Source: Spirochaetia bacterium
GTDB taxonomy: Bacteria > Spirochaetota > Spirochaetia > CAKZLE01
Assembly (NCBI GenBank): GCA_963677595.1
Contig: OY782041.1
Coordinates: 2,816,001-2,880,000, forward strand
Direction of reading: 5' to 3'
DNA: 64,000 nt
Shown one piece after another: positions 1 to 4,953 of this stretch; within the stretch, counting starts at the first letter, position 1, and each line of letters opens with the position of its first letter. Both the position numbers and the translations under genes were made by a program. The notes beneath the pieces were generated by a model. It was not told where the DNA came from. It was given only the letters and a program-made list of their open reading frames with translations, and ran no database searches.

Positions 1-2
1 CA

Positions 3-2168
3 CCGGGATGGACGAGTTATGACCATCGCCTGCTCTACCAGAGCTGCGTCGTCACCGGGTACCTGCACAAAGGCCGTAATGCAGTCGGTGCCCATCTCGG
101 GGCCGGCTGGTACAAGGGTGATATAAGCTTCACCCATGTGCGGAACTACTACGGGGACCATGCCTCCCTGTCGTTCCGCCTCGTTGTAGCATATACCGAT
201 GGAACGTCTGAGACCTTCTACAGCGACGAGAGCTGGACTGCTTCTGACAGCCCCGTCCTGCAGGCCGAGATATACGACGGCGAGGCCTACGATGCCCGGC
301 TGGAGCAGCCCGGGTGGGACCGGGCCGGGTTCGATGATTCTCTCTGGCGTACCGCTCGCCCGGTGCCCTGCACCTCCCGGCTCATCGAGCCGCAGCAGGG
401 GACGGCGGTCCGCCTCATTGAGACGGTCTCCCCGAAGCTGGCATTCTACACACCGAAGGGTGAGCGGGTGATCGACTTCGGGCAGAATATGTCGGCCCTG
501 CCGGAGATCTCCGGCCAGGGACAGGCCGGCGATACCATCGTGCTCACCTGCTTCGAGGTGCTCGATGCGGAGGGCAATGTCTACACCGACAACCTGCGGG
601 AAGCGAAGCAGCGGATCGTCTATATAGTGAAGGATGACAAGCCCTTCACCTACCGTCCCCATTTCACCTTCTTCGGGTTCCGTTTCCTCCATGTGGAATC
701 CTTCTGCGGACGTGCGGACCTCGATAACTTCACCGCGCGGGTGATTCACTCAGACATGGAGCCAACCGGCTCCTTCGAGTGCTCGAACCCTGAGATCAAC
801 CAGCTGCAGCACAACATCCTCTGGGGCCTCAAGAGCAACTTCGTCGACGTCCCCACCGACTGTCCCCAGCGGGACGAGCGGCTCGGGTGGACCGGGGATG
901 CCCAGATCTTCTGCAGGACAGCCTGCTTCAACGTGAACACCTACGGGTTCTTCACCACATGGCTGCGGGACCTTGCCCTTGACCAGGCTGCAGCCGGAGG
1001 GGTGCCCCACGTCGTTCCAGACCTCTTCAACAAGTACCCCTTCGAGAACTGGCTGCTCAACCAGGGGACCCACTCCGCTGCCGCCTGGGCAGATGCTGCC
1101 GTCATCATCCCCTGGAACCTCTACCTGTCCTTCGGGGACACGGCTGTGCTCGAACGGCAGTATGGGAGCATGAAGGAGTGGGTCGACTTCATGCACACGC
1201 ATGCGGTGGGGAATATATGGAACTACAAGCTCCAGTTCGGCGACTGGGTAGCCCTCGATGCCGAGGAGGGCAGTTACTTCGGTGCGACCCCGAACGACCT
1301 TACCTGCACCGCCTACTATGCCTATACCACCGGCCTCTTCTCGAAGGCCGCGAGAGTCCTGGGGAAGGAAGAGGTCGCGGATGAGTATGGGAGGCTCCAT
1401 GGTGAGATCGTCCGCGCCTTCAGGGAGACCTTCTTCGATGGTGAGGGGAAGCTGACTGCACAGACACAGACCGCCCATATCCTGGCGCTCCATTTCGATC
1501 TTGTCCCCGAGGCGTACAGATCGCAGACAGTCTCCGGCCTGAAGCGGCTGCTGGCCGAGCAGGATGGACACCTGGTCACCGGGTTCGTCGGTACCCCCTA
1601 TTTCTGCCATGCTCTGAGCGCTAACGGCTGCCTGAAAGAGGCCTATGAGCTGCTGCTCAAGGATGATTTCCCTTCCTGGCTCTACCAGGTCCGCAAGGGG
1701 GCGACGACCATCTGGGAACATTGGGACGGGATCCGTCCTGACGGCTCCATGTGGAGTCCGGGGATGAACTCCTTCAACCATTATGCCTACGGTGCCGTCG
1801 GGGAGTGGCTCTACCGGGTCGTCGCCGGGATCGAGATCGATGAGCAGGCCCCGGGCTATGCGAGGAGCATCATCGCCCCGAGGATCGGCGGTGACCTGTC
1901 ATACGTGAAGGCGTCCTATACCTCGAGCTACGGGGCTGTGGAGGTCATCTGGGAGGTGGCGCGGGATGCTGCCCATCCCGAGCTGAAGCATGTCCTGCTC
2001 CATGTATCCATACCGGTGAACACGGCTGCGGCGATCAGGCTCACCGACAATGCGGTACTGACTGACGGGGACGGCCTGGGATTCAGTCAGCAGGGTGAGT
2101 ACCTGGAGGCAGAGGCCGGATCGGGACGGTATACCATCGGGTTCGACCTGGCTGATCAGGCACGCTGA
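3..2168 (+). CDS. Alpha-L-rhamnosidase (GH78), 5'-truncated by the window edge
   Basis: Frame open from position 3 (PGWTSYDHRLLYQ); motifs PTDCPQRDERLGWTGD, GATTIWEHW and MNSFNHYAYG. Confidence 0.93.
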   Translation, partial: PGWTSYDHRLLYQSCVVTGYLHKGRNAVGAHLGAGWYKGDISFTHVRNYYGDHASLSFRLVVAYTDGTSETFYSDESWTASDSPVLQAEIYDGEAYDARLEQPGWDRAGFDDSLWRTARPVPCTSRLIEPQQGTAVRLIETVSPKLAFYTPKGERVIDFGQNMSALPEISGQGQAGDTIVLTCFEVLDAEGNVYTDNLREAKQRIVYIVKDDKPFTYRPHFTFFGFRFLHVESFCGRADLDNFTARVIHSDMEPTGSFECSNPEINQLQHNILWGLKSNFVDVPTDCPQRDERLGWTGDAQIFCRTACFNVNTYGFFTTWLRDLALDQAAAGGVPHVVPDLFNKYPFENWLLNQGTHSAAAWADAAVIIPWNLYLSFGDTAVLERQYGSMKEWVDFMHTHAVGNIWNYKLQFGDWVALDAEEGSYFGATPNDLTCTAYYAYTTGLFSKAARVLGKEEVADEYGRLHGEIVRAFRETFFDGEGKLTAQTQTAHILALHFDLVPEAYRSQTVSGLKRLLAEQDGHLVTGFVGTPYFCHALSANGCLKEAYELLLKDDFPSWLYQVRKGATTIWEHWDGIRPDGSMWSPGMNSFNHYAYGAVGEWLYRVVAGIEIDEQAPGYARSIIAPRIGGDLSYVKASYTSSYGAVEVIWEVARDAAHPELKHVLLHVSIPVNTAAAIRLTDNAVLTDGDGLGFSQQGEYLEAEAGSGRYTIGFDLADQAR

Positions 2169-2169
2169 T

Positions 2170-2202
2170 TCAGCTGTCGATCTTGATCCCAAGGAAGGAT
2201 AG
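2170..2202 (-). repeat. Displaced copy of the last 11 codons of the pentapeptide gene (direct repeat of 4191-4223)
   Basis: tcagctgtcgatcttgatcccAaggaaggaTag vs tcagctgtcgatcttgatcccGaggaaggaGag, 31/33 identical; both read LSFLGIKIDS* on the minus strand. Confidence 0.92.
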
Positions 2203-2213
2203 AGTAATTCATC

Positions 2214-2269
2214 TTGAATTTGTGAGATTTATAACTTATAATTGTTTTATGCAATAAACTTGCATAAAA
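2214..2269 (+). promoter_or_regulatory. Sigma70-like promoter plus 10-bp inverted repeat
   Basis: TTGAAT(2214)-17-TATAAT(2237); TTTTATGCAA-N5-TTGCATAAAA (2245-2269). Confidence 0.65.
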
Positions 2270-2290
2270 AGCTTGTAAGGTTGGTAGAAT

Positions 2291-3544
2291 ATGCTGCTGG
2301 AGTTCTCTGTTGGTAATTTCCGCTCTTTTAAGGAACGGGTGACATTCTCTGCTCTGGCTGATACGAAGATCAGGTCATTCACTGAGAATATACACATGGT
2401 AGGGAATCTTTCGGTATTGAGGGCGAATATCGTGTATGGTCCGAATGCCGGGGGTAAATCGAATTTTGCGCAAGCGTATTACAGCATGCTGCGGTTATTG
2501 CGCAGTTCATTCCAGGATGAGAACTCGCTCAGCCTCAGATATGATCCTTTTTCACTTGATGGCGCCATGAAGGGCAGGCCCACATATTTTGAGCTGCGGT
2601 TCCTGGTACAGGCTAAGGAAGATGCGATCTATCGGTTAGGGTTCGAGTATACTGCCGAAAAAGTCGTGCGTGAGTGGATGTACCGGAAAGCACTCAGCCC
2701 GAAAAGCAGGGAGAACCTCATCTATTCTCGTGATGGGCAAACTGTCCAGGCGGGTAACAGCATGCCTGACAAGGCCGTGATTCTCACCATCGAGAAGCAG
2801 AACCTGCTGCGGGAGAATACGCTGCTGTTCACCCTGCTTGATTCCTTGAACAACTCCATGGTCGCTGAGGTCCAGACTGAGTTCTTCCAGAAGAACATCG
2901 CTGCCAGTGCACTCTATCTTCATAAGAATGCCATGATCGATGAATCTGTCTTCGAAGATGAGACGTTGAAGGACGCGTATCTCTATCTTCTCCGGAAGGC
3001 AGATACCGGGATCGAGGATTTCAAACTTGACGATACGCCGCTGATGTCCAAGAAACGTAATATCCTGACGGCCCATACCGTGAGGAGGGGGAAAGAGCAG
3101 GAGCTCGAGTATTTTACGATGGCCACCATGGAATCTCAGGGAACGAAGAAGATCTTCATGCTGATAGGAGTAGTACTGACAGCCTTGAGGGACGGCGGCG
3201 TGGTGGTCATAGATGAATTGGATACTCAGCTCCATCCGTTGTTGACACGGCTCTTGTTCAATCTGTTCAATGACGCGACGATGAACCTGAAGCATGCACA
3301 GTTAGTTGCTATGACGCATGAACATTCATTGCTGAATCATCCTTCGATCAGGAAGGACCAGGTCTGGTTCATACAGAAGAATTCAGGTATGGAGAGCGAG
3401 CTCTTCTCTCTTGCAGATTTTAAGGATGAGCGGTCAGTCCATTCTTTTGGTAAGCGATATATGAGTGGGCAGTACGGTGCAATTCCTGACGTAGGAGACC
3501 TGGCATTCCTTACTGAGCACCTGTTTGGTGAAAGCCAGGTATAG
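2291..3544 (+). CDS. AAA_21/ABC-type ATPase (AbiLi/RloA-like)
   Basis: MLLEFSVGNFRSF start, Walker A GPNAGGKS, ESQGT signature, Walker B VIDELDTQLHP, C-terminal YMSGQYGAIP. Confidence 0.88.
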   Translation: MLLEFSVGNFRSFKERVTFSALADTKIRSFTENIHMVGNLSVLRANIVYGPNAGGKSNFAQAYYSMLRLLRSSFQDENSLSLRYDPFSLDGAMKGRPTYFELRFLVQAKEDAIYRLGFEYTAEKVVREWMYRKALSPKSRENLIYSRDGQTVQAGNSMPDKAVILTIEKQNLLRENTLLFTLLDSLNNSMVAEVQTEFFQKNIAASALYLHKNAMIDESVFEDETLKDAYLYLLRKADTGIEDFKLDDTPLMSKKRNILTAHTVRRGKEQELEYFTMATMESQGTKKIFMLIGVVLTALRDGGVVVIDELDTQLHPLLTRLLFNLFNDATMNLKHAQLVAMTHEHSLLNHPSIRKDQVWFIQKNSGMESELFSLADFKDERSVHSFGKRYMSGQYGAIPDVGDLAFLTEHLFGESQV

Positions 3545-4154
3545 AGTTGCCGGAAAGCCCCGGTTCAGGCAAAGGAAGATCCTTATTCTCTGTCAGGGGA
3601 AAACTGAAGAAGTGTACCTGTCATCTTTTCCCGGGGTGCGAAACGGCAGCGAGTGGTCAGTGTCTATCAATATTGAATCTCTGGCTCTCGATCCGCTGCA
3701 GCTGGTACAGCGTGCGGTGGCGCTGCGGGATCGTGAAAAAACCAGAGGTACAGGTTTCAACCAAGTCTGGTGTGTCTTTGATAAAGATGATTTCAAAAAG
3801 AACTTCCGCGAGGGGGTCCAGCTGGCGGATGCAGAGAATATCCACCATGCATTCAGTATTGAATCCTTTGAGTTGTGGCTCCTGCTGCATTTTCAGGCAG
3901 TTTCGGTTGACAGCCCTCTTGATCGGAATGATTACATCACTGAACTGGATTTTGGGAATCGATTGCCGGGATACTGCAAGCAGGAGGAGTGGTTGCAGCA
4001 GCATGTGACATGCAGGAGTCTGGGTAAGGTTCGGCGGGATCAAGCGCTGAGGAATTCTAAGAACCTGGAAGATAGGGCGAGGAAAAGAGGATCGGTCTAC
4101 AAGAAGCAGAATTGCACCATCCATAAGATAGTTGAGTTTCTGCTTCAGCTTTAG
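3525..4154 (+). CDS. RloB-family TOPRIM-like protein (AbiLii-like)
   Basis: ILILCQGKTEEVY, WCVFDKD and SFELWLLLHF motifs; overlaps the ATPase stop. Confidence 0.88.
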   Translation: MVKARYRVAGKPRFRQRKILILCQGKTEEVYLSSFPGVRNGSEWSVSINIESLALDPLQLVQRAVALRDREKTRGTGFNQVWCVFDKDDFKKNFREGVQLADAENIHHAFSIESFELWLLLHFQAVSVDSPLDRNDYITELDFGNRLPGYCKQEEWLQQHVTCRSLGKVRRDQALRNSKNLEDRARKRGSVYKKQNCTIHKIVEFLLQL

Positions 4155-4190
4155 ACAAAGGAAATAGAGAATAGGGCATGTTGCCTTGAG

Positions 4191-4814
4191 TCAGCTGTCG
4201 ATCTTGATCCCGAGGAAGGAGAGGAAAGACTGTGCCTCGGGCAGGGTGAAGACGGCATTCTTCAGTGCGTTGGACTCGGGGTCTATCAGGTAGCCCTCAG
4301 CAGTCCTGAAGTCGGCTTTCTGCAGGTCGCAGTGGCTGAAGGTGACATCCCTGAACCTTGTCTTCGAGAAGTCCGCCTCCCGGAAGTCAACATACCGGAA
4401 TTCAGAGCCTGAGAGGGTGCACTTCTGGATCGATGCCTTGCGCATCTTCCTGTTGGCGATGCAGACATTGTCGAGGATGCAGTCGGAGAAGGTGAGGGCG
4501 AAGAGGAACTCGTTGCAGTAGGTGAAGTCGACCCCGGCGAGCTTGCATCCGGAGAAGTGGACATCGTGCAGGGCGGTGTTGTCGAACTTCGTCAGGACGA
4601 AGGAGGACTCCTCGAAGATGCAGTCGGAGAAGTGGGTGCTCGCGAGCGTCATCCCGTCGAACGAGCAGGAGCGGAAGACGCACTCCTCGAACGAGCGGTC
4701 GGTGAGGTCCTCTACGGTGAAGTCTACCCCCTCATAGTGAATGAGCTCCTGGTAGTCCTGTATCTCAAGGGGTGATTCCCGGTCTATGGTCTGTATGCAG
4801 TTCACTGGTTTCAT
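4191..4814 (-). CDS. Pentapeptide repeat protein
   Basis: 5-residue periodic F/L-x-x-C/A repeats; ATG 4814 lies 10 nt after TATACT (ORF track start 4877). Confidence 0.88.
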   Translation of the reverse strand: MKPVNCIQTIDRESPLEIQDYQELIHYEGVDFTVEDLTDRSFEECVFRSCSFDGMTLASTHFSDCIFEESSFVLTKFDNTALHDVHFSGCKLAGVDFTYCNEFLFALTFSDCILDNVCIANRKMRKASIQKCTLSGSEFRYVDFREADFSKTRFRDVTFSHCDLQKADFRTAEGYLIDPESNALKNAVFTLPEAQSFLSFLGIKIDS

Positions 4815-4953
4815 GACGGAGCACAGTATAATCCATAAGCCCGGCTGTGGGAAGGAGCAGCTACCCTGCTGTGTCATACTGTTGACCCGATGTAACAGGA
4901 GCGAGCAGTCTCGGTATAGGTGAACGTATTTTCACCCGTTATGCCTGTTTTTG

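Follow-up and report, generated by a model that had tools for sequence, protein, structure and literature searches.

An AbiL-type cassette bracketed by copies of a pentapeptide-repeat gene end in a spirochaete genome, and its probable mode of entry

The locus described here is useful as a test case for how defence genes that travel without mobility genes enter chromosomes. Within a 64,000-nucleotide stretch of a Spirochaetia bacterium genome (GCA_963677595.1, contig OY782041.1, positions 2,816,001 to 2,880,000; hereafter the window), a pair of genes resembling the AbiL abortive-infection system lies between two direct copies of the 3′ end of a pentapeptide-repeat gene. The evidence set out below supports this repeat as the footprint of an insertion. 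The cassette itself probably arrived through a single homologous crossover with a piece of a relative's DNA, trimmed and circularised, in which the same gene end lay next to the cassette, a reading to which we give a probability of about 0.55. The 4.33-Mb source genome is called G000, further G numbers denote compared genomes, and X1 and X2 are sequencing runs, of which X2 may be the source sample of the assembly.

The cassette, its repeat and its strains

The locus comprises the following features, in window coordinates.

2166..2202: left direct repeat, in which the final 11 pentapeptide-gene codons and 4 further bases recur as a non-coding copy
2214..2242, plus strand: predicted sigma-70-like promoter (TTGAAT-17-TATAAT, 10/12 consensus)
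2247..2267: palindrome directly downstream of the -10 box, an inverted repeat and candidate operator
2291..3544, plus strand: AbiLi-like ABC-type ATPase, 417 aa (Pfam AAA_21, E 4e-25; PADLOC AbiLi, E 6.5e-82)
3525..4154, plus strand: RloB/AbiLii-like protein, 208-209 aa (Pfam RloB, E 9e-32; PADLOC AbiLii, E 1.5e-21)
4187..4223: right direct repeat, the intact 3′ end of the pentapeptide gene with its stop, identical in the X1 empty-site contig
4191..4877, minus strand: pentapeptide-repeat gene, the intact target (Pfam Pentapeptide_4, E 1e-22), true start uncertain

The two copies at 2170-2202 and 4191-4223 form a direct repeat with 31/33 identity, and the minus-strand translation of each is LSFLGIKIDS followed by a stop. 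The mismatches fall at Leu third positions (CTA/CTT in the far copy, CTC/CTC in the gene), both gene-upstream of an exact 21-mer (2170-2190), and the second lies 3 bases from the repeat end; two random substitutions in the repeat would both be synonymous with a chance of 4.5%. Sequence comparison thus bears out what an earlier, preliminary description of this DNA had reported of the 33-bp repeats, their Leu third-position differences and their perfect 21-bp core. Its statement that the copies differ only at synonymous sites holds within the 33 bp, but the repeat extends to 37 bp (2166-2202 and 4187-4223, 34/37), and the extension adds a third, previously uncounted mismatch, 2169 T versus 4190 G, which lies across the core from the first two and outside the 33-bp part. 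The 21-mer occurs exactly twice in the window (no matches in 100 shuffles) and twice in the 4.33-Mb genome when up to 3 mismatches are allowed.

Between the repeats lie 1,984 bp, with about 90 bp separating the repeat from the cassette start codon and 33 bp separating it from the stop. The GC content of this insert is 48.1%, compared with 61.7% in the left flank, 56.8% for the pentapeptide gene and a genome value of 54.6%. Neither an integrase nor a transposase was found in or beside the insert by open reading frame (ORF), Pfam and recombinase checks, and a search for terminal inverted repeats gave nothing better than 8/12. Judged from sequence, the gene pair is likely a horizontally acquired, AbiL-type abortive-infection defence cassette.

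At contig level the repeat is no assembly artefact, because X2 contigs cross both junctions: the left is crossed without differences (1000-2257), and another contig crosses the right (4156-4678). X2 also contains a second strain, B (depth 27.8 versus 32.3), which has the cassette beside another upstream flank. Three positions of its left copy are changed (2183, 2190 and 2191), and at 2191 it carries the gene's base; the changes at 2183 and 2190 are non-synonymous and lie inside the 21-bp core. Two further features come from this comparison of strains.

2153..2168, plus strand: short flank common to the strains without the rhamnosidase cluster; here it ends the alpha-L-rhamnosidase gene (3-2168)
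3570..4155: deletion in X2 strain B, 586 nt, joining 3569 to 4156 with 8-nt microhomology and removing almost all of rloB

X1 contains a 557-bp contig (depth 5.2) in which an upstream flank of strain-B type runs straight into the pentapeptide end. It holds one repeat copy, identical to the gene copy at every position including all three mismatch sites, and on this one contig we identify an empty site. Low GC and the X1 contig together support a foreign and polymorphic cassette. Nor are its borders shared by all relatives, since in both same-genus genomes the pentapeptide gene is followed by other DNA, and the X1 contig shows the empty site. The pentapeptide homologue in G001 is 67% identical, sits beside the same fur/ABC region and aligns from residue 36; no second copy of the pentapeptide end was found there in 40 kb. 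In G001, lipoprotein-like and reductase-like genes separate the pentapeptide gene from the next genes that the two genomes share.

The left side of the locus varies as well. The X2 strain-B contig aligns from 2153 with a foreign upstream flank and the loose end in X1 stops in the same motif, while G000 contains no exact match to the upstream flank of X1 or of X2 strain B. The rhamnosidase/sugar cluster left of the cassette (window 1-2168; G000:C1:2802261-2818168) is itself variable.

A class of bracketed inserts and a synonymous signature

We compared G000 with itself, taking direct pairs 0.3-30 kb apart and filtering them successively for a length of 25-450 bp at no less than 85% identity, for uniqueness in the genome, and for at least 500 bp enclosed at no more than 52% GC. 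Direct pairs fell from 242 to 49, 31 and 25 through these steps, and inverted pairs, taken through the same filters as a control, numbered 37, 17, 4 and 4. The 25 brackets are unrelated to each other and measure 26-384 bp (for example L052, L055, L057, L060, L066 and L069). Four of them enclose IS1634-like transposases with terminal inverted repeats, one has serine recombinases, and a few may be remnants of tandem paralogues, so about 20 is an upper estimate of the recombinase-free class. The earlier remark that a pentapeptide gene is an unusual integration target loses its force here, as the targets differ at every bracketed locus of the genome.

Cargo was assessed from a selection of proteins, 64 compared with Pfam and 20 with PADLOC. 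It includes Shango, AbiEi, AbiD, PDC-S01, PDC-M07, a HepT pair and sugar clusters, and some inserts hold an IS110, IS66 or DDE gene within the cargo. At the AsnRS bracket, the flanking genes are adjacent in G001 and G002, giving an empty site. The Shango (SngABC) operon at L069 (G000:C1:4202837-4209972) lies in a 188-bp direct repeat of 92.6% identity, with a duplicated L-arabinose isomerase gene end; its empty site is unreadable because the flanks are on different contigs in relatives. L063 (G000:C1:2879816-2891850, starting in the last 200 bases of the window) is an 11.8-kb insert; its bracketing repeat is 204 bp long and falls at the start of the ssb gene, and it encodes a large surface protein, two serine recombinases and an rve transposase accompanied by an ATPase. 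L054 (G000:C1:588919-592731) is a nested array of three related copies of a patatin gene 3′ end region, with a helix-turn-helix pair and an IS1634-like element between the copies.

Across this class the repeat copies carry a measurable signature. In nine Pfam-supported target genes, with the present locus excluded, mismatches between the copies comprise 22 synonymous and 7 non-synonymous changes. The expected synonymous share is 23-30% under neutral decay of the orphan copy and 38-46% with added gene drift, and under the gene-drift null the excess has a p value of 3e-5 to 9e-4. The nine genes were picked after the full count had been seen, and six loci were dropped for doubtful ORFs or for having two coding copies. 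The synonymous clue is weak at this locus and real across the class. Given this excess the copies behave like two coding alleles, an outcome consistent with a single crossover between the gene and a donor that had been trimmed and circularised. Whether long target duplications in general pair a donor with a recipient allele, and whether this was a main route by which defence and sugar cassettes entered this spirochaete (about 20 loci), is a broader proposition that we put forward tentatively and rate as rather doubtful. If true, the synonymous excess would settle a mechanism left open since the restriction-modification studies discussed below. With about 20 examples in one genome, strains that co-occur and either have or lack the insert, an internal control in IS1634 and the measurable synonymous signature, the choice between two alleles and an exact copy becomes testable with strain-resolved genomes.

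How the cassette may have entered

The locus joins an AbiL pair to an insertion with long target duplication; both are of known kinds, and the locus itself is ordinary. Papers are cited here by PMC number. Insertion with long target duplication has been described for restriction-modification (R-M) genes (PMC2853133), and the resemblance is close. As in those cases, the insert is shorter than 20 kb, the duplication is longer than 30 bp, genome-unique and with few mismatches, no mobility gene is present, a relative has an empty site, and the repeat overlaps a gene 3′ end, as in two 46-bp Haemophilus influenzae cases (PMC2853133). The difference lies in the cargo, which is AbiL rather than R-M, and in G000 sugar clusters are bracketed too; the presence of R and M genes, which the cassette lacks, was a search filter of that study and not a feature of the mechanism. 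A literature search that left subscription papers and supplements outside its reach found nothing on long target duplication around Abi-type cassettes, which is no proof of absence. Nobusato et al. (2000) is reportedly an earlier source on long target duplication.

The reading that we favour would proceed in three steps. A donor fragment bearing the gene end next to the cassette would be degraded until about 35 bases of homology were left; the remaining ends would then be joined into a circle through an illegitimate joint, an end-joining scar at about 2200-2203; and the circle would integrate by a single crossover within the repeat. The geometry is that of the preliminary description without its dedicated attachment site. 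The outcome would be an intact gene and a non-coding copy, later drifting independently in different strains. A comparable route is documented in Escherichia coli, where a linear donor with a homologous gene end was degraded, circularised and inserted by a single crossover, duplicating 109-950 bp, ten times more frequently than by homology-facilitated illegitimate recombination (HFIR; PMC3240628). The product there, a gene followed by cargo and a partial gene-end copy of variable length with no integrase, resembles the present locus, whereas the E. coli work used a plasmid construct, saw events at a frequency of 4e-9 and obtained the longer duplications given above; HFIR proper tends to cause deletions and not duplications (PMC3240628). 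A related route that combines an anchor with an illegitimate joint has been invoked for effector arrays (PMC5361080).

Several observations weigh against this reading. A homology of 35 bp is far below the 109-950 bp duplications of the E. coli experiment, and no donor was found in which the cassette directly follows the pentapeptide gene without a duplication. The unfiltered count is 45 synonymous to 36 non-synonymous mismatches over 352 and 1,150 sites, and sites within one locus are not independent. Here, the coding stretch of the far copy has four known changes, evenly divided between synonymous and non-synonymous (2 each), in line with plain decay. The IS1634 duplications described next diverged after insertion, so a synonymous bias can arise later. 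The empty site is a single contig of depth 5.2, and a 160-bp piece of rloB in X1 makes a chimeric join through the repeat possible; this piece is the sole close cassette match in X1, where the right flank is mostly covered. A repeat is seen at only one of the two close homologous cassettes (in G164; the G205 contig is too short). Finally, RloB has Gln at its first acidic position, and the defence role of the pair is a prediction from sequence.

Of the rivals, the one that survives best is exact copying of the target at insertion, by double-strand-break repair or by a long-duplication DDE transposase acting in trans, with later decay and allele exchange. We regard it as possible, if on the unlikely side. 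It is a serious rival because the repeats of resident IS1634 copies diverge after insertion. G000 has two IS1634-like elements with two near-identical copies each.

G000:C1:589133-591290, 757089-759133, 1576179-1578219 and 2572952-2575109: IS1634-like copies

The target duplications of these four copies are 94, 128, 215 and 301 bp long. Such duplications are generally exact at birth. Those in G000 already differ by up to 2.7% (8 mismatches in the 301-bp duplication) while the element pairs are identical at 2,041/2,044 and 2,158/2,158 positions (99.85-100%), and the coding differences in one duplication are 3 synonymous and 1 non-synonymous. Exact copying would also accommodate far-copy changes that are mostly strain-private and half non-synonymous, and the agreement of the gene copy with the X1 allele wherever the repeats mismatch (three sites). 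What it explains less readily is the 22:7 synonymous excess, which would require extensive later exchange inside short repeats. The cassette resembles the IS1634/IS1549 family, which includes elements with 8-514 bp duplications (PMC2266710), in its long target duplication, variable in length among those elements and represented by the four copies in G000. It differs from these elements in that they carry a DDE transposase and terminal inverted repeats, and it has neither. Its ends show no IS1634-type terminal motif, which makes a transposase in trans less likely, and no terminal inverted repeat beyond the 8/12 match. A non-autonomous IS1634-type transposon was rejected as a candidate, for want of terminal inverted repeats like those of the resident copies. 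As to double-strand breaks, those made by R-M systems have been suggested as the cause of long target duplication (PMC2853133), and an AbiL cargo is not obviously a source of breaks. Insertion through an RNA copy was also considered and ruled out, because the insert contains its own -35 box.

The single-crossover reading shares its geometry with a second, improbable rival, namely a circular element with a dedicated attP, integrated by a site-specific recombinase that either acted in trans or belonged to a larger island and was later lost. The preliminary description had proposed a crossover inside the core with an attP that mimics the pentapeptide C-terminus. Of this proposal, the crossover between alleles has class-level support and the dedicated attP lacks support. 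A restored gene and mismatches gene-upstream of an exact core are the expected geometry of an attachment (att) site, G000 encodes six tyrosine recombinases, and one other bracketed insert has serine recombinases. The six, however, lie 402-2,291 kb from the cassette, and within 30 kb of any of them no match to the repeat was better than 23/33. Inverted recombinase-binding arms are a usual, though not universal, criterion for att sites; this repeat lacks dyad symmetry, with no arm pair of at least 5 bases and at most 1 mismatch found. The 21-mer has no match in the metagenome contigs, all 25 brackets are unique in the genome, and no excised join was found among X2 contigs, which drop rare forms.

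Homologous cassettes and strain B speak to the same point. In G164, from another spirochaete family, a 60%-identical cassette lies inside a different repeat of 56 bp and 87.5% identity (L047:2203-2257 and 4318-4373), at different distances from the genes and hence with different boundaries. Because this homologue has an unrelated repeat, the repeat is likely a property of the target and not of the cassette, as judged from one informative locus; the G205 contig stops about 130 nt beyond rloB. The G164 repeat overlaps a fragment that presumably represents the start of a cysteine desulfurase gene, between what we take to be DUF2442-like, PIN-like and AbrB-like remnants, and the region lies beside a methyltransferase-like gene. 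In X2 strain B the gene's base at 2191 means that the base here, which might be taken for an attP allele, is likely a private mutation, and the two non-synonymous changes in the core indicate that the core is unprotected.

An assembly artefact, or what remains of a tandem duplication that arose locally and had nothing to do with how the cassette arrived, is very improbable: G000 has 6.3% contamination and the sample is likely a strain mixture, but X2 contigs span both junctions, two strains have different left copies, and the repeat hugs the low-GC cassette. ComEC is present in G000-G003, and 10 of 14 control genomes have it too, which makes it uninformative.

The AbiL-type pair and its relatives

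PADLOC and Pfam matches for both genes uphold the earlier naming of an AbiL-like cassette. The rloB start overlaps the end of the ATPase gene (3525 versus 3544), and AbiL is described as a bicistronic abortive-infection system with a TOPRIM_OLD effector (PMC10440598). The pair shares with AbiL of Lactococcus lactis and with PARIS (AriA-AriB) the arrangement of two overlapping genes, ATPase then RloB, and matches the PADLOC AbiL models PDLC02335 and PDLC02337; it differs in being chromosomal, in belonging to a spirochaete-associated clade and in having Gln at the first acidic position.

The preliminary description had given the insert its own promoter about 12 bp from the junction. A sigma-70-like site does begin at 2214, at a distance of 12 bp from the junction on the insert side. 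With 4 sites of this kind detected and 2.7 expected from shuffles, the promoter is a consensus match only. A 7-7-7 palindrome follows the -10 box in all three homologous cassettes, including those of G205 and G164 (window 2247-2267; L046:1522; L047:2393), and is, on sequence grounds, a likely operator; the pattern, built from these same three loci, has one exact match in G000.

The ATPase motifs GPNAGGKS, ESQGT, VIDE and THE are conserved in the homologue alignment, and we take them to be the Walker A, signature, Walker B and His-switch motifs, respectively. Its clade comprises 12 other proteins of 52-68% identity and is spirochaete-associated. Close cassette homologues are present in 2 of 400 genomes of the class and in none of the 5 other genomes of the order; an RloB-based search of phylum genomes found none in 400, and a DNA search of 40 relatives left the cassette unmatched. 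Searching for related loci with the ATPase returned distant loci only (27% and 40% identity). A profile search of the 400 class genomes added three further, more distant loci, with no bracketing repeat in the short stretches examined.

In RloB, the first-strand motif reads CQG or TQG in all 10 clade members with an N-terminus and CEG in four distant relatives. The clade keeps the DxD motif; here DKDD and a later Glu are present, and the first Glu is replaced by Gln. The assignment of RloB as a predicted TOPRIM-type effector follows from Pfam, PADLOC and the account of AbiL (PMC10440598). Its predicted structure (pLDDT 88) gave a weak Foldseek match to an OLD protein (6nk8; E 0.11, TM 0.40, rank 37) and nothing at E 0.001 or below, the top rows being lumazine synthases. 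A sequence search of the PDB returned no matches for the RloB alignment and one weak match for the ATPase alignment.

The acidic TOPRIM motif binds two metals (PMC10568477), and the E26A substitution in AriB inactivates PARIS defence (PMC11464382). Given this and the clade-wide Gln, defence activity of the present pair cannot be assumed; the RloB Gln and AriB E26 are equated by motif position and not by structural alignment. By analogy with AbiL and PARIS, the ATPase would keep RloB inactive until a phage signal or protein releases it. The cassette may represent an AbiL clade in which the catalytic Glu of the effector has been swapped for Gln. The loss of rloB alone in strain B fits RloB as the dispensable or costly half, and together with the Glu-to-Gln change it provides a small handle on a little-studied defence system.

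Besides the present pair, G000 carries eight AbiLi-like ATPase genes and five RloB matches.

G000: 123799-125118, 677082-678991, 896002-898127, 906519-907748, 2992654-2994553, 3032342-3037708 and 3137892-3139920: further AbiLi/RloB-like loci

A bracketing repeat of at least 85% identity is present at one of the nine AbiLi-like loci, the one described here, and one other has two repeats of 70-77%; the bracket is therefore not a trait of the family. The pair at 677082-678991 has host-like GC and a degenerate RloB motif. The repeat census also recovered a CRISPR-like array with a spacing of about 61 bp at G000:C1:430884-432563.

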